IMG/VR virus record: IMGVR_UViG_2529293219_000028 | Reading direction: 5' to 3' (one strand) | DNA from: a virus | Taxonomy: Duplodnaviria; Heunggongvirae; Uroviricota; Caudoviricetes | Length of the DNA stretch: 38,658 nt | Shown here: piece after piece, positions 4,527 through 37,687 of the stretch | Layout of the letters: each line of letters opens with the position of its first letter | How positions within the stretch are numbered: position 1 is the first letter of the stretch | The notes under the pieces: generated by a model | Seen by the model: only the letters and a program-made list of their open reading frames with translations | What the model was told of the DNA's origin: nothing | Database searches by the model: none | Program-made: the position numbers and the translations under genes

Positions 4527-5087
4527 TTATTTTTCCGAAACGCTCGCAGGATAATAACGATAAAGGGTTGAAAGGCCGATATCAAAAATAAGTGCCACCT
4601 GTCTTCGACTGACACCCCCGGCCAGTAAACGCCCGACCTGCTCGTATTGTTCCTGCGTGAGACGACGGGGTCTGCCGCCGGTTCGTCCCCTTTCACGGGC
4701 AGCTGCAAGACCAGCCCGTGTCCGTTCGACAATTAATTCACGCTCCATTTCTGCCAGCGCACCCATTATGTGAAAAAAGAAGCGCCCCATGGGGGTTGAC
4801 GTATCAATGTTGTCAGTAAGACTACGAAAATTTATCCCCTGTTGCTGTAATTCATCTGTCAGCGCAACAAGGTGGCGCATACTGCGCCCCAGCCTGTCCA
4901 GTTTCCAGACCATCAGTGTGTCACCGGGTTTTAGTTTCTTCAGTGCCCGCTTCAGTCCCGGCCGCTGTGTCGTTTTACCACTCATTTTATCTTCAAAAAT
5001 CTGCTCACATCCTGCACATTCCAGCGCATTTCTTTGTAAACCTGTGTTCTGGTCATTTGTTGATACGCGTATATAGCCAATCAGCAT
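4527..5087 (-). CDS. gin: Gin/Hin/Cin-family serine DNA invertase
   Basis: MLIGYIRVSTNDQNTGLQRNALECAGCEQIFEDK...MGRFFFHIMGALAEMERELIVERT is near-identical in pattern to Mu Gin; lies 56 bp from the left boundary of the invertible segment. Confidence 0.9.
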   Translation of the reverse strand: MLIGYIRVSTNDQNTGLQRNALECAGCEQIFEDKMSGKTTQRPGLKRALKKLKPGDTLMVWKLDRLGRSMRHLVALTDELQQQGINFRSLTDNIDTSTPMGRFFFHIMGALAEMERELIVERTRAGLAAARERGRTGGRPRRLTQEQYEQVGRLLAGGVSRRQVALIFDIGLSTLYRYYPASVSEK

Positions 5088-5141
5088 GTATTTACCTTCC
5101 TTAAAAAGAGGTGGAAAGGCCTTTTAAAGCAGATATACGGC

Positions 5142-5167
5142 ATCCCTGAAACCTTCGGTTTACGGGA
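5142..5167. other. Candidate gix-like crossover site (left); near-palindrome TCCCTGAAACC-TTCG-GTTTACGGGA
   Basis: Palindromic core AAACC..GGTTT exactly where the inverted-repeat homology begins, just upstream of gin. Confidence 0.55.
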
Positions 5168-5335
5168 TACTGTAAACAGGGCCGCGAATGCCCTGCCATC
5201 GAACGGAGCGGCTGTTGCAGCGAATAAACTCGCCACTCCAAGAAATATTAATGGTGTCCCATTTGACGGAACGCAGGATATAAATATTACATCGGGGATG
5301 ACGCAGTCTGTGGCTGACTCACGTTATGTTCAAAG
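5157..5335. repeat. Left inverted repeat of the invertible tail-fibre segment (about 180 bp, roughly 80% identical to the reverse complement of 6351-6529)
   Basis: Manual alignment; both copies start at GGTTTACGGGA and share runs such as CCAAGAAATATTAATGGTGT and TTTGACGGAACGC. Confidence 0.8.
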
Positions 5336-5513
5336 CATTCGAAGAGGTTCAAGGTCAACGATTGGAATGCAATATAATATTTTTGAGGTTCCTGACGGAT
5401 GCGTACTTACAGGGCTTGATGTCGCTGGTGATGGTAATGCAACGGTAACCGCATATTATCGACCTGTTCAGTTTCTGATAGATGGTTCGTGGAAAACAGC
5501 TTCCAGCGCATAA
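5157..5513 (+). CDS. Alternative tail-fibre C-terminal cassette (S'v-like), startless and currently not joined to the fibre gene
   Basis: Frame is open from 5064 with no in-frame start; encodes ...GLRDTVNRAANALPSNGAAVAANKLATPRNINGVPFDGTQDINITSGMTQS..., paralogous to residues about 205-260 of the minus-strand fibre, then diverges (ORF-track 5298..5513). Confidence 0.7.
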   Translation, partial: GLRDTVNRAANALPSNGAAVAANKLATPRNINGVPFDGTQDINITSGMTQSVADSRYVQSIRRGSRSTIGMQYNIFEVPDGCVLTGLDVAGDGNATVTAYYRPVQFLIDGSWKTASSA

Positions 5514-5592
5514 AAGTGCAGTAGTTCAAAAAACAGATTATCTGAATAAATATATGATGATTTTGTCTTTTCAACAAAAACAAGGTGAAATA

Positions 5593-6114
5593 ATGGAGCT
5601 TATTAACGTAAAACGATATTACCCGGAACACAAACCCTATGGTGAGGATGTTCAGTATTTCCAGAGTGAGGACGGAAGGGATTTTTATGAATCTATCCCG
5701 CTTTTCACAAAGAAATACAAACTCTGTATTTCGCCTGTAACGGGTATTATCTGCTCTGTTGCTGAAGATGTCTCTGCTTTATATCCGGCAGGTTTTACTG
5801 TTGTTGAAGTGGACGAACTGCCGGAAGGTGTGAATATTGACGGTAACTGGCAGTTTTCTGATGGCCTGATATCAAAGGTGCCGGTAAACTGGAAGACGGT
5901 TGCTGAAAAGCGCCGCTCATCGCTGCTCCAGGAAGCCAACGAAACTGTGGATGACTGGAAAACGGAATTAAAACTGGACATGATTAGCGATGAAAATAAA
6001 TTACAGCTGACGCGCTGGATGGCGTATATCCGACAGCTTAAAGAAATGCACTTTAATGATATTGCCAGTGAGGGGCATTACCAGGCGATTCCCTGGCCGG
6101 AAAAACCGGAATAA
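5593..6114 (+). CDS. Tail fibre assembly (chaperone) protein, Mu U/U'-like
   Basis: MELINVKRYYPEHKPYGEDV... with the AAGGTG RBS before the ATG at 5593 chosen as start; ORF-track frame 5482..6114; identity called from position and general Tfa-like character, not a recognised motif. Confidence 0.7.
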   Translation: MELINVKRYYPEHKPYGEDVQYFQSEDGRDFYESIPLFTKKYKLCISPVTGIICSVAEDVSALYPAGFTVVEVDELPEGVNIDGNWQFSDGLISKVPVNWKTVAEKRRSSLLQEANETVDDWKTELKLDMISDENKLQLTRWMAYIRQLKEMHFNDIASEGHYQAIPWPEKPE

Positions 6115-27861: not shown

Positions 27862-28362
27862 TCAGACTTTCGGCAAGTCGTAGCGACATAACCATTCATC
27901 CGCCGAACGGCGGGCCTCAAGGCCGGGGAGTTTCACCCCCTTTGAATAAATCCAGCGGATATACTGCTTACAGGACGCGGGCATCTGCCCGGCATTGATC
28001 AGGCGCAGAAGCGTGGAGTTGCGAAAGTTCGTTTCACCGGCCCAGAAGATCCACGAAGCCAGCGCCACCGTCTGACCACGGGTAAGCGGCACCTGAACAC
28101 GCCGATCAATGGCCGCAAAGGCCCATTTCATGTCCTTTTCCAGTAGTTCCAGGCATTCTTCATCTGTCAGGGTCATACCCGGTTTCACATCCGGGCCGGT
28201 ATGGCCGTAACAGATGGTGGGTGTACCGGTGGGATCGATATACGTGGAGTTTTCTTTCCCTTCCCAGTAACCGGTGTAATGCGTGGCAATCGTGAACGTC
28301 CCGGCACCGGCCAGAACAAGGGCAATCAGCTTTTTACGCAGTGGTGCGGGGAGTTTTGGCAT
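27862..28362 (-). CDS. Endolysin (phage lysozyme) with N-terminal signal-anchor-release-like hydrophobic segment
   Basis: 166 aa; N-terminal LIALVLAGAGTFTIA followed by lysozyme-like YTGYWEGKENSTYIDPTGTPTICYGHTG. Confidence 0.8.
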   Translation of the reverse strand: MPKLPAPLRKKLIALVLAGAGTFTIATHYTGYWEGKENSTYIDPTGTPTICYGHTGPDVKPGMTLTDEECLELLEKDMKWAFAAIDRRVQVPLTRGQTVALASWIFWAGETNFRNSTLLRLINAGQMPASCKQYIRWIYSKGVKLPGLEARRSADEWLCRYDLPKV

Positions 28363-28433
28363 TGTTACGCTGTCTCATGATGTTCTCTGAGTCAGCGTAA
28401 CGGTGAAGGAGAGGCGGCAGGCTTTGCGGAATA

Positions 28434-28859
28434 TCAGAAAAGTGGCGGTTGCGTTCTTGCCAGATGCAGACGGCGCTGTTCGCGTATGACGGTATAAATC
28501 TGGGTTTCTGACATCCGGTAATGGCGGCGAAGGGATTCAATTTTCTCGCCCCGGTCCCAGCGCGAAAATATCTCATTGTTTCGCAGCTCGGCAAAGAGAG
28601 ATTCCCCGACCGGCAGGTAATAACCCCGTCCGCCCATATAGGCTGCCTGAGCCGCAGCCACCTTGCGTGCCAGTTTACCGGCCAGTACCGGCTCAATCCC
28701 CTGACGCTGAAGTTCTGCGCCGGTGACTTCAACCAGTTCTGACAGGGTCCGCGGCCAGTTCTTTTTGAGAACATCATCAGGGATGTCATCAAGGCGGTCG
28801 ATAAGGGCGTGCAGTTGCTCACTGTCACCACCAAACATGCTCATCTGAGTTTCTGCCAT
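28434..28859 (-). CDS. Mor/C-family transcriptional activator
   Basis: 141 aa; C-terminal region aligns by eye with Mu Mor; sits between the GemA-like gene and the endolysin gene. Confidence 0.75.
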   Translation of the reverse strand: MAETQMSMFGGDSEQLHALIDRLDDIPDDVLKKNWPRTLSELVEVTGAELQRQGIEPVLAGKLARKVAAAQAAYMGGRGYYLPVGESLFAELRNNEIFSRWDRGEKIESLRRHYRMSETQIYTVIREQRRLHLARTQPPLF

Positions 28860-28928
28860 ATCAGCCTCCGGTTCTCGCGTTCCCGGTAAGTTTAAAATAA
28901 AAATCCCGCGTTGTGGCGGGATTTGGGG

Positions 28929-29438
28929 TTAACGGGGAAGTGATTTTTCATACTGCCTGCAAACGGCGTCATACCCCATCAGCGTGCGTTCGGGCATTCC
29001 CATCGCGGCCAGCATTTTGCGGCGGTGCCATCGCTTGAGACGCTCCAGCACATCTGAGGCCAGGGCGGGGTGTTGCTCCAGCCACTGCCAGTTTGCCACA
29101 CCTTCGCCGCCGTTCTGCGCGGCCGTCTGCGATTTCACCCAGCGGTTAAGGGCGGTTTCCGCACCATCGGTGATAAAGCCCTGCCGGTGCATCACCTTCC
29201 AGATGGCGCGAATTTTGGCGGTCACCGTACCCGGTTTTAAGGCCCGGTTAACCGGGTTCTGACGCACTTTAAAACCGCGTTTTTTGAAAACATCCAGCAC
29301 GCGGGATAACTCATCCGGTGACATATCCCGGCAGCTGGTTTTGCCGGTGGCTGCCAGCAGCGCGGATGTATAAGTCTCATCATCCAGGGCAAGCTCGCGC
29401 TTTGCCACATGAATGGCGGATATCAGTTTTCCTCTCAT
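28929..29438 (-). CDS. GemA-like (Mu gp16) regulatory protein
   Basis: 169 aa immediately upstream of the Mor/C gene; synteny. Confidence 0.6.
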   Translation of the reverse strand: MRGKLISAIHVAKRELALDDETYTSALLAATGKTSCRDMSPDELSRVLDVFKKRGFKVRQNPVNRALKPGTVTAKIRAIWKVMHRQGFITDGAETALNRWVKSQTAAQNGGEGVANWQWLEQHPALASDVLERLKRWHRRKMLAAMGMPERTLMGYDAVCRQYEKSLPR

Positions 29439-29731
29439 ACCGTATTTACCTTTTTACGGACATGGAAAGCCTTTTCTGCCTCATCCCACCGGGCATGGTG
29501 TGTTGGTGGAATAATCATTATGTGCCAGCCATCTCTGGTTGTTATCCGGCAGAAAAACTCACCGCTATATAACACAATGGCCTGCTGAATGAGCGCATCA
29601 GCCGCCCGTTCAACCGGATGTCTTTTATCAAAAAAGCAGATGATTTTTCGACATAACCACCGGGTAATAACAAATGCGCCGAAAAAGGATGTGATATATA
29701 AGCACCAGAACAACAGAGAACTATTGTCCAT
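29435..29731 (-). CDS. Hypothetical membrane protein
   Basis: 98 aa; N-terminal hydrophobic segment; AT-rich gene. Confidence 0.5.
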   Translation of the reverse strand: MDNSSLLFWCLYITSFFGAFVITRWLCRKIICFFDKRHPVERAADALIQQAIVLYSGEFFCRITTRDGWHIMIIPPTHHARWDEAEKAFHVRKKVNTV

Positions 29732-29918
29732 TATCTTTCTCCTTATTCACTCTTCTGCGGCATTCGGCACAGTCATCAGGGCTTTCAAATGTATCCGGCT
29801 CGCGATTATGAGCCAGATATAACCACCGTCCACATATACTGATATTTTCGCCTGTTTTAAAAAAATGATGCTTCCTGGCCATTAGTGGCCGCGCCCATCC
29901 AGCGGGTAGACTATTCAT
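29721..29918 (-). CDS. Hypothetical small protein
   Basis: 65 aa ORF in an operon-like array. Confidence 0.4.
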   Translation of the reverse strand: MNSLPAGWARPLMARKHHFFKTGENISICGRWLYLAHNREPDTFESPDDCAECRRRVNKEKDNGQ

Positions 29919-30285
29919 TTGCTTTATCCTCCATGCTGGACAGAATCATATGTATTAATGTCGGGCGTGGAGATATACGCATTTCATTAAGCGTCTGAAG
30001 GGCAGCAACAGCTGCCTGTTTATCGGTGCCTTTGGCAATTTCAGCAAGAGAATGCACAATCCATAACGGACTTAACGCCACGGCTGAATCCAGAATCATG
30101 TCATCCATAATAATTTCTGGCATATCCCGTTTGTCACATTCTTTATCCATAAAAGAAACGATTTTTTCTGCATCTTCCGGTTTCATGCCTCCGGCGATGA
30201 GAATTTTACGATATTCATAAGACGATCTTAATTCAATACTCATATTCATCTCCTGTAACTCTGACAAGGTCGTGATTTTTCTCAT
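29911..30285 (-). CDS. Hypothetical protein
   Basis: 124 aa; overlapping stop/start with neighbours. Confidence 0.55.
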   Translation of the reverse strand: MRKITTLSELQEMNMSIELRSSYEYRKILIAGGMKPEDAEKIVSFMDKECDKRDMPEIIMDDMILDSAVALSPLWIVHSLAEIAKGTDKQAAVAALQTLNEMRISPRPTLIHMILSSMEDKANE

Positions 30286-30467
30286 TTATGTTTTCCAGTA
30301 ATACGGATATATATGTCGATAAGAAGATTCATAATAAACAGGAAGAGCGACATCCTGATAAAGAACCATATATCCGGCATCATGGACAGATTTCCTGTAA
30401 CCGCAAATATAAAACCAACCCCCCACACAGGAACGATAATTGCGAAAAAAACAAGTCTCCTTATCAT
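30282..30467 (-). CDS. Hypothetical small two-TM membrane protein
   Basis: 61 aa with two hydrophobic helices. Confidence 0.5.
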   Translation of the reverse strand: MIRRLVFFAIIVPVWGVGFIFAVTGNLSMMPDIWFFIRMSLFLFIMNLLIDIYIRITGKHK

Positions 30468-31015
30468 GTCGTTAACTCCCGTAATACAACATCTTCGGCA
30501 GTCCGACGACGGTGATAAATAAAACTCACCGTGCCCTCGGATAATTCAAATTTCTCGCCGATTTCCCTAAAGGTAAGACGCCGTGGTGATTCAGCATCCC
30601 GTAATTCACGAATAAGATGAACATCATCGTCAGGTATGCGGGTAAAAGGCAGTAATTCTCCGTATTTTTTCATGCTTACGCCAATATATCGCGCCCGATT
30701 GTGGACAGAATCCCGGTCTCGCCCCAGATATTCTCCTATTTGCTTACCGGTCATCGTCCTGGCATTTTTTCGGATAAATTTATCTTCATCAGGTTTAAAT
30801 CTGAGGCGTTTGCATTTGAGCAACTCCGGGTAAGTACCGCGTAATAAAACAATCCGGTTATGTACACCCCAGAAACTTCTTTTTATCCTGACAGCAATAT
30901 CCTTAACCGGGGTGGATGGATAAAGCGCAATCAGCAGCGCATCTTCTTCAGGTGTCCATGCGCGAACATGAGCGGGTGCACGGCCTTTTCTCCCCATGGG
31001 TTGTAATTTCATCAT
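30464..31015 (-). CDS. DNA-binding protein with three tandem Myb/SANT-like helix-turn-helix repeats
   Basis: 183 aa; three repeats of about 45 aa each starting W/F-x-P-(E/D)-(E/D)-D and ending in a basic helix (WTPEEDALL..., FKPDEDKFI..., IPDDDVHLI...). Confidence 0.6.
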   Translation of the reverse strand: MMKLQPMGRKGRAPAHVRAWTPEEDALLIALYPSTPVKDIAVRIKRSFWGVHNRIVLLRGTYPELLKCKRLRFKPDEDKFIRKNARTMTGKQIGEYLGRDRDSVHNRARYIGVSMKKYGELLPFTRIPDDDVHLIRELRDAESPRRLTFREIGEKFELSEGTVSFIYHRRRTAEDVVLRELTT

Positions 31016-31018
31016 GCA

Positions 31019-31534
31019 TCACCCCCCGACTCGCTTTTCGGCAGCATAAAACTCATCAGACAGAATTTCGGTCATTTTCCGTTTTGCGGAATCATCTTCG
31101 CACTGAAGGTAAATAACATCGTCAACGCAGAACCACTTCACGGGACCATGCAATATTGCTGAGATGTCAATACCCAGCCAGAACAACAGTGCATCGGTTC
31201 TGGCATACGTGACGGGCGAATATTCACGCCACAGACTGTTAAGTTCGTCAGAGGCAACGCGCAGGGCTTTGGGAATACGTGATGTGCGCGGTGTGCAGCT
31301 CCAGCCATTCGACGCAGTCGGTTTTCGCCATAAGTCGCGATGAAAAGGATATTTGTCATCCATAAAGCGCAGCCCTTTAAAACAAAAGCCACTGATACCG
31401 GATACAAATACCGACCGGCACGCAACATTCAGCACGGCCTCAAGGCGTTTTGCCTCATCCTTAACTTTCTGGCAGTCCTGCTGATATTTTTGCCACGCGG
31501 CCAGCGCGGAAGGGTTTGATGTTTTAAAGAACAT
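31019..31534 (-). CDS. Hypothetical early protein
   Basis: 171 aa; stop/start abutting neighbours. Confidence 0.55.
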   Translation of the reverse strand: MFFKTSNPSALAAWQKYQQDCQKVKDEAKRLEAVLNVACRSVFVSGISGFCFKGLRFMDDKYPFHRDLWRKPTASNGWSCTPRTSRIPKALRVASDELNSLWREYSPVTYARTDALLFWLGIDISAILHGPVKWFCVDDVIYLQCEDDSAKRKMTEILSDEFYAAEKRVGG

Positions 31535-32067
31535 TACGCCACCTCCGCAGATATCCCGGCAGGTGCAGCCGTCCGGTCAACAATCAGGTAACGCAGAACA
31601 TGTTCGGTGATATTCCAGCCGCTTAAACCGCAGATAATGACACCCAGGCGAATGTCGATATACGCCATCACAAACTGGGGCACGCCTTCTTTCATGGCCT
31701 GCTCATCAACTTCAACCACCACATAAACGGTTTCGCAGGTCAGTACGCCCTGAGCAAATTCCCACGCCATCGACGGAATATCATGCCCCTCAATCCACGG
31801 CAGGGATTTTCTGAAGCTGCACCACTGAACATCATCAGCCGCACCTTCCTGGCTGCATTTGCGACGAACCGGCTGCACCGGGCGGGGACGCGGAATATCA
31901 TAAAAACCGTTACATTCCGTCAGCACCCCGGCATCGACCGCATCACGCAAAAAATAAACCATCGAGGATGGCGGCATATTCATTTTTTCAGCCAGAATGC
32001 CGCAGGTCAGACGCCCGTAAATACTCAGCCAGTTTTTAACCCCTTCAAGCACTTTTGCATCAATCAT
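31534..32067 (-). CDS. Hypothetical early protein with N-terminal winged-helix-like segment
   Basis: 177 aa. Confidence 0.55.
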   Translation of the reverse strand: MIDAKVLEGVKNWLSIYGRLTCGILAEKMNMPPSSMVYFLRDAVDAGVLTECNGFYDIPRPRPVQPVRRKCSQEGAADDVQWCSFRKSLPWIEGHDIPSMAWEFAQGVLTCETVYVVVEVDEQAMKEGVPQFVMAYIDIRLGVIICGLSGWNITEHVLRYLIVDRTAAPAGISAEVA

Positions 32068-32070
32068 GAA

Positions 32071-32613
32071 TTATTCCTCCGTCAGCGCCACATATTCAGA
32101 ATGTTTAATTTCCTGGCATTCTTCAGGAATACACCCTTTTATTTCCCTGCCATAAGCGCCTACTTTAAACACCACGCACAGGGCATCACGGGAGAGCGAC
32201 GGGGTCCACCAGGAGTCCGTGTTAAACATGGAGGGGATTCTCATTACCCCCAGCTTTTCACAGAGCCAGACAAGGAAATCAGGACGCTTTCTTAACTCAC
32301 GTTCAGCGGTTTCAATCATTGCGGCAATCGCCGGACCTTCAGGGCATGACTCATCAGGTCTGGCAATAAAGCACGGTCCGTCCCCGATAAAAGCCACATC
32401 ATCGCGCTTACGCCAGCCCGCAGGCAGAGCACCAGAAAAATAAAACTCACTGATTACGTCCATGGCAAACGGCTTTAAGCGCAATCCGGCAGCGCCTGTA
32501 TTTTTCAGTAATGCCCGAAGAATACTGTTGCGTAGCGGTAAAACAGTCTGTTGATATTTGGTGAAATATTTATTTGTCTGCACACGGTCTAATTTGAAAT
32601 AAAAATATGCCAT
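32071..32613 (-). CDS. Hypothetical early protein
   Basis: 180 aa. Confidence 0.55.
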   Translation of the reverse strand: MAYFYFKLDRVQTNKYFTKYQQTVLPLRNSILRALLKNTGAAGLRLKPFAMDVISEFYFSGALPAGWRKRDDVAFIGDGPCFIARPDESCPEGPAIAAMIETAERELRKRPDFLVWLCEKLGVMRIPSMFNTDSWWTPSLSRDALCVVFKVGAYGREIKGCIPEECQEIKHSEYVALTEE

Positions 32614-32710
32614 ATATCCTGTTCCTTATTTTCAGTTTACAGGCGCAGGCAGTCCCCTGACGCGAGCGCCATAATTAAAACGAAGTGATATTTAATTGAT
32701 TAATGCGGTG

Positions 32711-33241
32711 TTATTTATTCAGTCCGGCGTCCTGTTCAAAAGGCTCGACATAAAAACTTTCAGCGCCTTTATTCACCTTAATACCGGCAATCCCTTTCAC
32801 CGCATCCGGCTCCGCCAGGACCGCTTCCTTGTTCACTTCCTCTTTCGTGCGGATAAAACGCTCAAGGCCCATACGGCGCAGCATTTCAATCACACCTTCC
32901 ACATCACGACTGACGCTGCATGATGGATTCCCCAGTCGCCATGACACCGTTCCGGTGGTCAGATTGGCAGTTTTGGTTTTGCCGCCGTTCGTCAGCTCAT
33001 CACGGTTGGTTTTGCACCAGTCCTGAATCCCCTTAAAAAGCACTTTGATTTCTTTTTTAAGGTTTTCAATCTGCGGCGTATAACGGGCGGTGATTTCTGC
33101 CACTTCATCATTCATCGCTGTTTCCAGGCGCAGCGCCTCTCGCTGAATATCGCCCAGGGTGCGGATATCGCGGCTGACCTCTTCACGGGTCTGCGGTGCC
33201 GCCTCTGCTGCGGCCTTTAATTTTGTAACGCGTTTTGCCAT
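32711..33241 (-). CDS. gam: Host-nuclease inhibitor Gam (Ku-like DNA end-binding protein)
   Basis: 176 aa; MAKRVTKLKAAAEAA...DELTNGGKTKTANLTTGTVSWR...FIRTKEEVNKEAV... closely matches Mu Gam as recalled. Confidence 0.85.
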   Translation of the reverse strand: MAKRVTKLKAAAEAAPQTREEVSRDIRTLGDIQREALRLETAMNDEVAEITARYTPQIENLKKEIKVLFKGIQDWCKTNRDELTNGGKTKTANLTTGTVSWRLGNPSCSVSRDVEGVIEMLRRMGLERFIRTKEEVNKEAVLAEPDAVKGIAGIKVNKGAESFYVEPFEQDAGLNK

Positions 33242-33252
33242 TTTGTTTTTCC

Positions 33253-33546
33253 TTATTGCAGTGTGCCTGATGCTTTATGCACGCGGTGGCGTTTAATGAT
33301 GGCATCCGCCCCAAAAGCCTGTACAGATGCCTGAAATTCCGCTGAGAGAAACTGAATAATTTCAGGGCTGTGATACTGGAGAATACTTGCATAAACGTCA
33401 CAGAGTGACGTCGGCCTGTTATTCGTATCACGTTCTGTTTTTACATCCACACCAATCTTTTCATGCACTTCAACACAGTCATTGCCTGCCGGTTTTTCGT
33501 CATGCGAAACATGCTTAAATTCAAAAATAACGCGTACTTTGCTCAT
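33253..33546 (-). CDS. Hypothetical small protein, paralogue of the adjacent gene
   Basis: Starts MSKVRVIFEFKHV... (internal Met of track ORF 33253..33573); resembles the neighbour's MSKVVRIIFEYKEHV... Confidence 0.55.
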   Translation of the reverse strand: MSKVRVIFEFKHVSHDEKPAGNDCVEVHEKIGVDVKTERDTNNRPTSLCDVYASILQYHSPEIIQFLSAEFQASVQAFGADAIIKRHRVHKASGTLQ

Positions 33547-33550
33547 GGAA

Positions 33551-33823
33551 TTACCCCTGCTGATTAAATTCATTACCTTTAATAACCCCGGAACGCATGC
33601 TCATATCTTTCATGAGCGCACTGGCTTTCATTGCCACAAGTTCAGCAAAGTCTCTGCTTTCCGCGAGCATAACCACCCCAAAAATCATGGCGGGTCCATC
33701 ACCTTTCTGCTTTATCCCGGTTGAACGTATGTCCAGACTTACCCCCATGCGCACTGTTCCATCAGCGTTTTTATGGATAACGTGCTCCTTGTATTCGAAA
33801 ATAATGCGTACGACTTTACTCAC
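33551..33823 (-). CDS. Hypothetical small protein, paralogue of the adjacent gene
   Basis: 90 aa; shared N-terminal motif with 33253..33546. Confidence 0.55.
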   Translation of the reverse strand: MSKVVRIIFEYKEHVIHKNADGTVRMGVSLDIRSTGIKQKGDGPAMIFGVVMLAESRDFAELVAMKASALMKDMSMRSGVIKGNEFNQQG

Positions 33824-34369: not shown

Positions 34370-34597
34370 TTAGCTGACTTGTTTCGCACCAACAGAACGG
34401 CATATTCCGCTGTAAACGTCTGTCGCACCTTCGCGATCAAGTCCGGCAGATATCACCATTCGTGTGCGGTCATTAAATTCAAAAAGTAAATCGCCACATT
34501 CTTTATTTTCGGCCAGTGAAATCACCTTCACGTTATCGAAATTAACCAGGTAAAAGCGTCCGTAAATATCAGGAATATAAAATACCGCCATAATCAC
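34370..34597 (-). CDS. Small early protein in the position of Mu kil
   Basis: 75 aa ORF directly downstream of the B-like gene; assignment by position and size only. Confidence 0.45.
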   Translation of the reverse strand: MIMAVFYIPDIYGRFYLVNFDNVKVISLAENKECGDLLFEFNDRTRMVISAGLDREGATDVYSGICRSVGAKQVS

Positions 34598-35526
34598 ACC
34601 TGTGAGAGTAATTCAGGGTTGGTATAAACCTCTTTAAAGGCCGCATTAATATGTTTTTCTGTCAGCGCCGCACCTTCACCGCTGGCGGTGAGCCACGCCT
34701 GGTTAAGCGTATGTGTCAGAACGCGTAACGCTCCCGGCTTTTCAGCGATAGCCTGCATGACGGCCAGCTCGGCCTCACCACTGATACCCCATGCCCTGGC
34801 AATGGCCAGCACATCCGCCTTTTTGGCCTTGCGAAGTTGTTTTGTACGGGCAAGACGGCTGAACAGGCGCGATAAATCATCAAAGGCGCGGCGTCCACCT
34901 TTAAACAATCCGCGCGGGTTACCAATAAGCACCATCCCGATCCCCGTGGCGTCCTGAATTGCCCGGAGTTGCTCCAGACCGTCAATACCAAGATGATCCG
35001 CCTCATCCACAATCACCAGTCCACGCGTTCCCATCAGGCGACGGCGGATGGCGCGGGATAATGCCCCTTTGTTCGCGCGGGTGTAATCAATCCCCAGCGC
35101 ATCGGCCAGCTCCAGCAGACACTCCGTGACGCTGGAGTGCGCGGGTGACAGGGTGATCATCCAGGTGTTTGGTTGCTCCTGGCAGTAATTACGGGCGGTG
35201 GCCGTTTTACCTACCCCCGGCACGCCCACAATGACGTTAATACAGCCCATCAGGCGAACCGCCTGAAACAGTGCGCGCAGCTCCTGAACTGTCTGCGTTT
35301 CCACAAACTGCGGCGGTTCCGGCAGTGCGCTTTGTTTATTCCAGTTCTCATACCAGGAACGCAGGGAAGCAGCCACAGCGGCGTTATCGCCTTTATATTT
35401 CCCCTTGCGGAAAGCCGATAATGTGCCGTCGGAAATTCCCGCCTCTCTGGCGATGGCATACTGCGTCAGTACGCCGCCATCAATAAGTTCATCAATGGTC
35501 TTGATTACATCGTTAATATCAGTCAT
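34594..35526 (-). CDS. Transposition ATPase, Mu B-like (AAA+)
   Basis: 310 aa; Walker A VGVPGVGKTATARNY; directly downstream of the transposase gene. Confidence 0.85.
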   Translation of the reverse strand: MTDINDVIKTIDELIDGGVLTQYAIAREAGISDGTLSAFRKGKYKGDNAAVAASLRSWYENWNKQSALPEPPQFVETQTVQELRALFQAVRLMGCINVIVGVPGVGKTATARNYCQEQPNTWMITLSPAHSSVTECLLELADALGIDYTRANKGALSRAIRRRLMGTRGLVIVDEADHLGIDGLEQLRAIQDATGIGMVLIGNPRGLFKGGRRAFDDLSRLFSRLARTKQLRKAKKADVLAIARAWGISGEAELAVMQAIAEKPGALRVLTHTLNQAWLTASGEGAALTEKHINAAFKEVYTNPELLSQV

Positions 35527-35596: not shown

Positions 35597-37687
35597 TCAG
35601 GCCAGCGGGTCATTTTCTTTTAATTTCGCTTCGAGCAACTGCAATCCCCGCTGGAAATTGCGCTCGTATTCTTCATCAGGCTCATCATCAATGGCAGGTT
35701 GCTGAACGGCCACCGTATTACCTACCGGGCGATAGATGTTTTCCAGCCAGGGCTCCTGCGGCTTGTGCTCCAGCACGTTGACAACCTCATCCTCGGCATC
35801 ACGGATTTTTTCCTCTGCGCGTTTACGCATGCCTTTAAGGCGTTGCTGCTGTTTGTAGTATTCCGCGCTAACCGGGAAGGCTTCGCGTTTATTACCGTCC
35901 CATACCGCCTCGCAAATCACGCTGCCATCCAGGCGACGTACGGTAATTCGTTCGGCATCATGAATGTCATAGCTGATAAGCACCTTGCGGCCATGCTCAT
36001 CACGCAGCTCGGGCGCGTAGTAAATATTATTCAGCCAGCGTATTTCACAGCGTCTTACAGGGCGTTCCACCATCGGCCGGAACATGTCCCGCAATTCCAC
36101 ATCGGACAGCCATTCAATTTCCGTGTCCTCTTCCGCCAGGCGTTTTTTTCTGAACTCCGCCGGGCTGTAATGCTTGCCGTTCGGCTTCACCGGTAATTCA
36201 TCGTGCGGCCGGTTGTTGTACCACTCAACACCATCACGAATGGCATCAATCAGTTCAGACCAGGACGGTAAATCACGCATCGCTGACTGCTGCCGGGCGT
36301 TCAGCCGTTTGCCCTGTTGCAGGGCAGTAAATGCCGAGCGTAAATCGCGGTTGGTTTTGCGTAACGTCTCGCGATCTGCACCTTTCCCGAAATAGGTGCG
36401 GTATTTACGGGCTATGCGCATCGGTAATGTGCGGTTAAGCCGTTCGATAATGCCTCGTCCCTGCGGATTACCGGCAATCCCGGTCGGGTGATTAATCCCC
36501 AGTCGCGGCAGTATCCCCACAACCTCCTTATCCAGGATGTCGGCGGTTTCCCCGGAGCCGTTATCCGAGTAATACAGAAACGGTTTGCCGTGATGGCGAA
36601 TGCCGTGCTGTATGGCACCGGCTACGGCGAAAACATTTTCAGCCAGGTCAAGGCTCCAGCCCACCACAAAGCGCGTGCCACCGTCGATAACAAAGGTCAC
36701 TTCCGGTGCAAATGGCCGACCGTGAACCGGGTGTGCGCATTTCAGCTTCATGCCGTGACCGTCACCAATCCAGACATAATTCACCGGCATTCTGGACCAG
36801 TCGCGGCGCGTGAATCCCTCAAGCTGGCGGTATTCACTGCCGGTCACCCGGCCTTTTTGTTTCACCACTTCCGGCAGTTTCTTCATTGCGCGGCGAATGG
36901 TGTCATAAGACGGCATGATATCGAGCATATAAGGCTCATCAGCGTGCCGGTGCTGCCATTCAGCGACAAAATCCTCGTAAGCCTCGGTCATTGGTCGGCC
37001 GTTTGACTGGCGATACTGCGCCAGAAATTCGGGCAGCCAGTTAATATCTTCGGCTTTTATTTCCTGGCGTTTACCCGGTGCCAGTAAAAGCAGGCGTTCA
37101 GCGGCGTTCTGTGCCTTGTTAAAGGCCGCAATCCATCGCTTCAGCGTGATTTCACTCAACGCACGGCTGTTTCCCTTTTTGGCGTTCGCCGTCTCAACCA
37201 TTGCCACAATGCGCTCGTCCAGCTGTGAACGTGCCAGGTTGTCAACGATAAACCGGATAGCCTTCGCGCAGCTGAAACCGGGTTGTTGCGCGACTTTCAT
37301 CACTTCGCTGACGATCGCGATTCGTGCATCAGCCACCTGGCGCTGGTTTTCAGTCAGGGCATTGAGGCGTTCGACCATCAGTTGTGGTGATCCGCGATAT
37401 GCCTCCACCGCATCAACCACGTCAGATGAGCGTCTGGCCTTTGTCACCACCGGAGCCGGTGATTCATCGGCTTTTTGCGTCATCAGTTGCAGGGCATAAC
37501 GTTCACGTAATGCCTGCTGCGTCACTTCAGGTAAACAGTCGATGCTGTATTCAGTTGCTTTAGAGCCTGAGCGACGACGGGAACAACAGCTTTTCCCTTG
37601 TACGTAACGTTGTAATGCCTGGCGAATACCTTTTGTTGTAGCAGGCATTCCGGGCGCGCCAATCAGTTCTTTTGCAATGACATACAT
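35597..37687 (-). CDS. DDE transposase, Mu A-like
   Basis: 696 aa; catalytic-core motifs WIGDGHGMKLKCAHPVHGRPF and LYYSDNGSGE; follows ner with start/stop overlap. Confidence 0.9.
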   Translation of the reverse strand: MYVIAKELIGAPGMPATTKGIRQALQRYVQGKSCCSRRRSGSKATEYSIDCLPEVTQQALRERYALQLMTQKADESPAPVVTKARRSSDVVDAVEAYRGSPQLMVERLNALTENQRQVADARIAIVSEVMKVAQQPGFSCAKAIRFIVDNLARSQLDERIVAMVETANAKKGNSRALSEITLKRWIAAFNKAQNAAERLLLLAPGKRQEIKAEDINWLPEFLAQYRQSNGRPMTEAYEDFVAEWQHRHADEPYMLDIMPSYDTIRRAMKKLPEVVKQKGRVTGSEYRQLEGFTRRDWSRMPVNYVWIGDGHGMKLKCAHPVHGRPFAPEVTFVIDGGTRFVVGWSLDLAENVFAVAGAIQHGIRHHGKPFLYYSDNGSGETADILDKEVVGILPRLGINHPTGIAGNPQGRGIIERLNRTLPMRIARKYRTYFGKGADRETLRKTNRDLRSAFTALQQGKRLNARQQSAMRDLPSWSELIDAIRDGVEWYNNRPHDELPVKPNGKHYSPAEFRKKRLAEEDTEIEWLSDVELRDMFRPMVERPVRRCEIRWLNNIYYAPELRDEHGRKVLISYDIHDAERITVRRLDGSVICEAVWDGNKREAFPVSAEYYKQQQRLKGMRKRAEEKIRDAEDEVVNVLEHKPQEPWLENIYRPVGNTVAVQQPAIDDEPDEEYERNFQRGLQLLEAKLKENDPLA

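Follow-up and report, generated by a model that had tools for sequence, protein, structure and literature searches.

The window analysed here is a stretch of 38,658 nucleotides from a virus of the Caudoviricetes (IMG/VR record IMGVR_UViG_2529293219_000028), and the feature under study is an AT-rich islet of 1033 nt within it (29435-30467). It carries four small open reading frames (ORFs), named here after the length of their products in amino acids (aa) as ORF61, ORF110, ORF65 and ORF98. The islet is 100% identical to the Mu-like prophage Sp18 of Escherichia coli O157:H7 Sakai, in whose annotation all four genes are listed as hypothetical proteins. They are packed between a gene for a helix-turn-helix (HTH), Myb-like protein and GemA, the last gene of the early operon, and an initial annotation made from the letters alone had rightly placed them inside that operon. 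Comparison with close relatives makes it likely that the slot between the HTH gene and GemA is a variable cargo site at the promoter-distal end of a Mu-type early (“semi-essential”) operon; this grading applies to the structural and evolutionary reading only, the functional claims being graded on their own below. Table 1 gives the gene order of Sp18, which reads from right to left across the window.

Table 1. Features of the early operon of Sp18 and its surroundings in the window, listed in the gene order of the prophage
Feature	Coordinates	Strand	Remarks
Transposase A	35597-37687		
Transposase B	34594-35526		
Gam	32711-33241		
Mu gp11 homologue	31534-32067		67% identity to Mu gp11
Mu gp12 homologue	31019-31534		52% identity to Mu gp12
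HTH/Myb-like gene, ECs_4956	30464-31015	minus	183 aa; weak Pfam matches to Sigma70_r4, AsnC-HTH and Myb
ORF61, ECs_5772	30282-30467	minus	61 aa
ORF110, ECs_4957	29911-30243	minus	124-aa reading would span 29911-30285
ORF65, ECs_4958	29721-29918	minus	65 aa
ORF98, ECs_4959	29435-29731	minus	98 aa
GemA (gp16 family), ECs_4960	28929-29438	minus	Pfam GemA, 3e-30; 44% identity to Mu GemA
Terminator-like hairpin	28901-28924	minus	9-bp stem with 5 G-C pairs, then a T-run; pattern match only
Mor/C-family activator	28434-28859	minus	Adjoins GemA; lysis and late genes lie beyond

The guanine-plus-cytosine (GC) content of the islet is 0.419, compared with a mean of 0.537 (standard deviation 0.049) for the window, which puts it at the 0.58th percentile of all 1033-nt stretches; the lowest stretch of that length (0.414) starts at 29621. 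At third codon positions the GC content of the islet genes is 0.36-0.47, compared with 0.65 in GemA. The initial annotation had described a drop relative to both flanking genes, and this holds for GemA, but the HTH gene is AT-rich as well (0.458) and the dip reaches to about 31015, so that in composition the islet covers five genes and about 1.6 kb. The idea that GC content generally dips upstream of GemA in Mu-like phages was considered and rejected, as such a dip is absent from 29 loci of other genera and amounts to only 3-6 points in Mu, D108 and SfMu.

Three of the four genes stand as first described, with their coordinates, their strand and lengths of 98, 65 and 61 aa, whereas the third, read initially as 124 aa, is most likely a gene of 110 aa starting at 30243. 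There, AGGAG precedes the ATG by 7 nt, while the upstream ATG at 30285 is preceded by no more than a weak GGAAA; sister prophages become similar from about 13 nt before 30243, the phrog_1988 profile covers residues 15-123 of the longer reading, and RefSeq annotates 110 aa. The 124-aa version is probably an artefact. Neighbouring ORFs, including the HTH gene and GemA, overlap by 4-11 nt, with ATGA overlaps between the HTH gene and ORF61 and between ORF98 and GemA, and each of the four genes is preceded by a strong and well-spaced Shine-Dalgarno sequence. Between natural alleles, the ratio of nonsynonymous to synonymous substitution rates (dN/dS, Nei-Gojobori) lies at 0.06-0.25 across the four genes, with many synonymous differences. 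All four are genuine protein-coding genes under purifying selection. Short ORFans devoid of known domains, with three of the four families limited to one genus, might also be chance occurrences, or genes in decay, within AT-rich junk DNA, but such low dN/dS ratios in all four genes, with ample synonymous change, effectively refute this idea and leave it with a very small probability. Further arguments against it are the canonical Shine-Dalgarno sequences at correct spacing, the persistence of intact ORFs across alleles down to 50% amino-acid identity, and, in the case of ORF65, a confidently predicted fold and five residues invariant across 148 distant relatives.

Evidence for a variable slot comes from the relatives of Sp18, of which representatives were fetched for each megablast coverage class. 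This GemA type occurs in 231 of 5426 complete E. coli genomes, part of the islet being present in 220 and ORF61 in 109. Among close E. coli relatives with flanks 89-100% identical, we found nine slot architectures of 629-1899 bp (Table 2). Across all variants GemA keeps 89-100% identity, the HTH gene is found in every variant of the lineage examined at 73-99% identity, and conservation extends to the gp11-like and gp12-like genes.

Table 2. Content of the slot in Sp18 and its close relatives, from the HTH gene to GemA (numbers are protein lengths in aa; 98a and 98b are the two alleles of ORF98)
Prophage	Slot content
Sp18	61, 110, 65, 98a
L008	61, 110, 65, 98b
L007	103, 116, 110, 65, 98a
L009	103, 116, 110, 65, 98b
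L006 and L001	61, 75, 103, 116, 110, 65, 98a
L042	103, 116, 110, 62-aa variant of ORF65; ORF98b unannotated though its 3' end is present
L043	110-aa protein of the 103-aa type, then 103-aa variant of ORF98
L044	109, 116, 102-aa variant of ORF110; opposite-strand DUF2513 gene
L002	110-aa protein of the 103-aa type, Mu gp13 and gp14 homologues, opposite-strand 79-aa gene; all four Sp18 genes absent

In sister prophages, ORF61 is replaced or joined by genes of 103, 116 and 75 aa, and presence or absence of ORF61 is found with either allele of ORF98. All four combinations exist, which requires recombination between the two genes. The left junction is common to all cassettes, consisting of the last codons of the HTH gene, a GGGAG ribosome-binding site (RBS) and the ATGA overlap; the first nine or so nucleotides are even the same in ORF61 and the 103-aa gene. 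On the right-hand side, similarity resumes about 13-15 nt before the start of ORF110, around its RBS. Comparison of the variants shows that gene-sized, AT-rich cassettes have been swapped by recombination exactly at gene boundaries. The GC content of the slot stays at 0.41-0.46 in all nine versions, whatever the content. The islet is also not one unit of four genes: ORF61 is an optional cassette, and ORF110, ORF65 and ORF98 form a more stable sub-block. One sister prophage, L002, lacks all four genes and has flanking genes at least 94% identical to those of Sp18, and L043 lacks three. From these natural variants, the four genes may be dispensable for the phage backbone. The block is borne out as a non-core, compositionally distinct insert and varies between close relatives; it has been assigned no replication or regulatory role and is not conserved across Mu-like phages, which would have spoken against the initial reading.

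In Mu, D108 and SfMu, the interval between gp12 and GemA likewise contains small genes, namely gp13 (Cys-rich, 60 aa), gp14 (100 aa) and gp15 (55 aa). The four Sp18 genes had been noted as lacking obvious Mu counterparts, and indeed BLASTP, tblastn, profile hidden Markov models (HMMs) and hhalign found none in Mu or D108. Against Mu gp13-gp15, the best BLASTP E-value was at least 0.13, and the profile HMMs of the Sp18 genes had no match in either Mu or D108. A remote relationship to Mu gp13 or gp14 was rejected as well, since the hhalign probability was only 0.2% for ORF110 against gp14 and 0.1% for ORF65 against gp13. ORF110 does have a relative in SfMu. Outside the genus, neither tblastn nor profile HMMs at E<=1 detected any of the four families in 29 GemA-anchored Mu-like prophages, a set that includes Photorhabdus, Pectobacterium, Dickeya, Photobacterium and Pseudomonas. 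Mu gp13-gp15 and the genes of Sp18 are thus alternative occupants of one hypervariable slot.

Concerning expression, a consensus scan of 28300-33400 returned 7 promoter-like sites compared with 7.0±2.5 in shuffled sequences and 6 terminator-like sites compared with 6.5±2.4, and none of these sites brackets the islet. The sole convincing hairpin with a T-run lies directly after GemA and probably marks the end of the early transcript carrying the islet. In Mu, the annotated early terminator is located after mor; the early transcript of Sp18 may end one gene earlier. No Rfam family was found at E<=1 across 28300-31600. Because no signals of its own were seen and stop and start codons overlap, the early promoter would be the only source of islet transcripts, which would be made soon after infection or induction and be lacking in the repressed lysogen, and the overlaps suggest that its genes are translationally coupled to their neighbours. 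The word moron, by which the genes had first been called, suits them in their deviant composition, as in morons, but a classical moron brings a promoter and a terminator of its own and is expressed in the prophage state. With no such signals seen in the Sp18 islet and with stop and start codons overlapping those of the neighbours, the four genes fit better as operon-embedded accessory genes than as morons in the strict sense. In some sister prophages, the slot or its vicinity also holds opposite-strand genes, encoding a DUF2513 protein (L044:2565-2975, plus strand), a 79-aa phrog_32893 protein (L002:3713-3952, plus strand) and, between GemA and Mor, a 113-aa ORFan (L043:2120-2461, plus strand); these resemble classical morons more closely than the four Sp18 genes.

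Hydropathy analysis (Kyte-Doolittle, 19-residue windows above 1.6) revealed one transmembrane (TM) segment in ORF98 and two in ORF61, so that the two membrane proteins named in the initial annotation are retained, and none in ORF65, ORF110 or the flanking genes. ORF98, with its TM segment at about aa 5-24, is predicted by the positive-inside rule to be a single-pass membrane protein with its N-terminus outside and its C-terminus inside, displaying a cytoplasmic domain of about 65 aa. Its RBS is AAGGAG and its stop codon lies in the ATGA overlap with the GemA start. Only 7 protein clusters among 5.8 billion proteins belong to this family, all from E. coli. The two alleles are deeply diverged, being nearly identical in residues 1-35 and strongly different beyond; codons 1-36 show a dN of 0.07-0.085 at a dS of 1.3-1.6, close to saturation, and codons 37-98 a dN of about 0.6. 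ORF98 would thereby tether a rapidly diverging cytoplasmic domain to the membrane via a sequence-specific TM helix. A constant TM segment with a diverging domain may be the pattern expected of a membrane-tethered inhibitor that tracks a variable target of the host or of a rival phage at the inner membrane face. A profile search against PDB sequences was empty, and the AlphaFold2 model, with a predicted local distance difference test score (pLDDT) of 54.8, was too poor for a fold search.

ORF61 has hydrophobic segments at about aa 5-23 and 32-52, with RR at its N-terminus and R/K/K at its C-terminus, and is predicted to be an inner-membrane protein of two TM segments forming a hairpin, with both termini inside and a periplasmic loop of about 9 residues. 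Such a hairpin peptide would act inside the inner membrane. Its start is preceded by a GGGAG RBS and forms the ATGA overlap with the stop of the HTH gene. The family comprises only 16 protein clusters, all from Escherichia or Shigella, its dN/dS is 0.13-0.20 with an almost invariant second TM segment, and a profile search against PDB sequences gave nothing significant. A class II holin would fit the predicted size, the two TM segments, the topology and the charged C-terminus; such holins, though, are encoded next to the endolysin in the lysis cassette and conserved with it, which does not hold for ORF61, an early-operon gene lying about 2 kb from the lysozyme gene and missing in about half of the prophages.

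ORF110 is predicted to be a soluble α-helical protein. It is a member of the SfMu gp14/phrog_1988 family, sharing 34% identity (HMM E-value 1.5e-13) with SfMu gp14 from the same interval, and is represented by 13 clusters in E. coli; relatives of 34% identity occur in SfMu and also in Mu-like phages of Yersinia. Designed helical-repeat proteins are matched by residues 62-108 (E-value 1.8e-8), and one variant has been named “HEAT repeat domain-containing” by NCBI, with no Pfam HEAT match. The N-terminal 70 aa are conserved, the C-terminal 35 aa, about a third of the protein, vary between alleles, and dN/dS is 0.06-0.14. ORF110 would be a binding scaffold of the helical-repeat type.

ORF65 belongs to phrog_2358 and is by far the most widespread, with 435 representative clusters (50% identity; E<=1e-3) and 325 phage records, 283 of them of Pseudomonas, mostly Pbunavirus (PB1-like), together with several E. 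coli myoviruses. Its signature W...H...C...CxxC consists of W8, H18, C29, C50 and C53, which are invariant in 143-147 of 148 representatives, H18, C29, C50 and C53 alone in 146-147 of them. These invariant His and Cys residues suggest an H-C-C-C metal site, and the protein would probably be a zinc-binding module for interaction with proteins or nucleic acids. In 29 of the 148 representatives the H-C-C-C module is found at the C-terminus of longer proteins of 100-226 aa with unrelated N-terminal extensions, such as P0039, P0042, P0070, P0114 and P0160, and it appears to behave as a portable domain; P0038 and P0061 were discarded as spurious relatives, being low-complexity multi-repeat proteins. 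The dN/dS is 0.11-0.25. Though the AlphaFold2 model reached a pLDDT of 90.4, Foldseek found no fold match in the PDB (best E-value 4.5), and matches in BFVD were uncharacterised phage proteins only. A described zinc-ribbon or zinc-finger family or fold was not matched either, with 0 of 46 family members having a hit in Pfam. A relation to Kunitz/BPTI domains was dismissed, the profile E-value being only 0.002, the conserved cysteines three instead of six, and the Foldseek comparison with TFPI giving a template modelling score of 0.24 at an E-value of 8. The early proteins of phage 14-1 have reportedly been screened for host targets; identity of ORF65 with gp12 of that phage was excluded, gp12 being an unrelated DUF6011 protein of 310 aa, and no homologue occurs in the first 16 kb of the 14-1 genome.

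What these genes do must be argued from their setting. None of the four has a match in Pfam, NCBIfam or PADLOC, all PHROG matches are of unknown function, and the same databases together with the PDB profile searches revealed no similarity to any known family for exclusion, defence or anti-defence; three alternative cassette genes gave no match in PADLOC or NCBIfam. Most likely, the four would be early-lytic, host-directed accessory factors. Because they appear early-lytic, dispensable, rapidly exchanged and allelically diversifying, and because the operon's characterised non-essential genes act on the host, we tentatively favour counter-defence or host modulation over exclusion, as in Gam and gnarl2/Mup07 of the same Mu operon, though we rate this at somewhat under an even chance. 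Gam acts against RecBCD. Mu E6/Mup07 is gnarl2, a validated counter-defence gene that weakens the O-antigen barrier (bioRxiv 10.1101/2023.04.06.535777). Several points weigh against the overall interpretation. No function-bearing homology was found in any of the four proteins, and its functional part rests on context and precedent. The uniformly low GC content of all cassettes lacks an explanation, and ORF110, ORF65 and ORF98, being present in about 95% of the lineage, are more like a lineage-specific semi-core than free cargo. Moreover, a consensus scan such as ours could miss an atypical internal promoter active in lysogens. At the speculative end, and unlikely in our estimation, at least one of the ORFans might be a new type of early-lytic conflict effector, ORF98 being the most suggestive, and, separately, ORF65 might define a widespread zinc-binding phage fold absent from Pfam and PDB with a role in host takeover.

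Superinfection exclusion, suggested at the outset alongside anti-defence, would mean that the two membrane proteins act in the inner membrane to stop DNA entry or infection of competing phages, whether in the lysogen or in the lytic phase. Both ORF61 and ORF98 are indeed predicted inner-membrane proteins, one optional and the other allelically diverse, as conflict genes usually are, and in Imm and Sp phage T4 has small membrane proteins that are produced early in the lytic cycle and act to exclude competing phages. In addition, gene 10 in the early operon of the Pseudomonas transposable phage Fc02 has exclusion activity (PMC9936078). However, with no promoter or terminator of their own seen and with overlaps to their early-operon neighbours, expression in the lysogen is unlikely, and the predicted topology, with the domain of ORF98 in the cytoplasm and a loop of about 9 residues in ORF61, would leave little exposed where incoming phage parts arrive, a misfit for a periplasmic blocker of DNA entry. 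The two genes also assort independently and are no obligate pair, and matches in PADLOC, Pfam, NCBIfam or to an annotated PHROG are missing. Furthermore, the premise that compact membrane proteins are usual cargo at this position did not hold up, as a small ORF with a TM segment lies within 2 kb upstream of GemA in only 5 of 32 other Mu-like loci. We therefore hold exclusion to be improbable; like anti-defence, it is nevertheless a reasonable hypothesis. A role in the phage's own cycle, be it transposition or replication, host division or lysis timing (ORF61 being holin- or antiholin-like), would make the genes lineage-specific equivalents of Mu gp13-gp15, whose map position they share; yet no sequence or profile similarity to these was found, and the Mu annotation gives gp13-gp15 no function. 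The retention of ORF110, ORF65 and ORF98 in about 95% of the lineage under purifying selection and the apparent translational coupling of ORF98 to GemA would suit such a role, as opposed to one sister prophage with near-identical flanks that lacks all four genes and another that lacks three. Similarly, the size of ORF61 and its layout of two TM segments with both termini inside are those of class II holins, but its gene stands in the early operon rather than in the lysis cassette and is absent from half of the prophages. On balance this role is doubtful, and we rank it slightly behind exclusion, leaving what remains to something else altogether. Counter-defence or host modulation is retained as our tentative preference.

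Some further observations concern the surroundings of the slot. The HTH gene matches phrog_323 (“transcriptional regulator, D5-like”; 1e-58) and is not found at the corresponding position in Mu, D108 or SfMu. The single Mor/C-family gene is 38.7% identical to Mu C and 26.8% identical to Mu Mor, with the lysozyme gene following it directly, and Sp18 has no annotated gene in the place of gp18-gp20, which in Mu lie between mor and C; together these features hint at a regulatory cascade shorter than that of Mu. Just downstream of Gam, a gene of 180 aa (32071-32613, minus strand) encodes a protein 40% identical to a DUF5420 protein of SfMu. In L002 its place is taken by a replacement (L002:6297-6866) of only 24% identity between flanks of more than 96%, which makes this gene a second variable site in the early operon. 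Two more short GC minima of about 0.41-0.42 were seen at 32450-32750, near the intergenic stretch after Gam, and at 33350-33650, among small genes upstream of Gam, and further low-GC stretches (0.43-0.47) lie at 1-2400 and 5000-6000, near the tail-fibre/host-specificity end of the prophage and its flank. The prophage itself is apparently intact and is not induced by mitomycin C (PMC2669165). L001 (LC727881.1) and L002 (LC727895.1) are records of Shiga toxin (Stx)-converting phages, in each of which, as annotated by the depositors, a Mu-like phage of the Sp18 type is inserted in full inside the Stx prophage; this shows transposition of the element into other prophages.

Papers on Sp18 give information at the level of the prophage only, the locus tags of the islet occur in no searchable paper, and neither the slot between the HTH gene and GemA in this lineage nor its gene families have been described or screened before. 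Phage accessory regions keep yielding new factors of anti-defence, exclusion and host takeover, and the Mu early operon gave Gam and gnarl2. The present slot is precisely delimited in a clinically important lineage, found in about 4% of complete E. coli genomes, many of them Shiga toxin-producing E. coli, and at least nine small gene families are now catalogued as candidates for expression-and-challenge screens. Two leads stand out, namely ORF98, whose TM anchor stays constant as its cytoplasmic domain diverges, and the H-C-C-C family of ORF65, which is widespread and has no solved relative.

Among known systems, Mu offers a close comparison, since gp13, gp14 and gp15 (E14, E15 and Mu_54) occupy the same interval between the gp12 homologue and GemA and are small genes of unknown function as well. 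None of the small genes of this interval in Mu is predicted by hydropathy to encode a membrane protein, unlike two of those of Sp18, and gemA of Mu is preceded by an intergenic region with a semi-early promoter, where in Sp18 ORF98 overlaps GemA. In L002 and L044, with their opposite-strand genes in the slot, GemA has another N-terminus and follows an intergenic hairpin, a layout nearer to that of Mu. T4 Imm and Sp, HK97 gp15 and Fc02 gene 10 resemble the Sp18 membrane proteins in being small, predicted inner-membrane proteins among early phage genes, but no homology was detected and the predicted Sp18 topology leaves almost nothing in the periplasm. With lambdoid morons and nin regions the islet has in common its deviant base composition and its presence or absence among relatives, and with nin also the tight packing of short ORFs. 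Regions of genomic plasticity in Pseudomonas Mu-like phages, which contain 0-6 ORFs of 34-100 codons mainly in the left arm, have been compared to lambdoid nin (Cazares et al. 2014, PMC4378225), and the Sp18 slot shares with them the position in the left (early) arm and a content differing between near-identical phages.

The slot also matches in structure the accessory regions of enterobacterial phages described by Silas et al. (2023, bioRxiv 10.1101/2023.04.06.535777), which are hotspots flanked by core genes and filled with small (~40-120 codons), fast-turnover genes of mostly unknown function, again differing in content between near-identical phages. The four Sp18 peptides do not occur in the supplements of that study, whose data set excluded prophages, and the junctions of the Sp18 cassettes are unusually precise in comparison, falling at ATGA overlaps and RBSs. 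Phage accessory regions are an established kind of locus, and the present findings stay within what is known of phage mosaicism; the Sp18 slot is a further, well-delimited case of it in an annotated reference genome.

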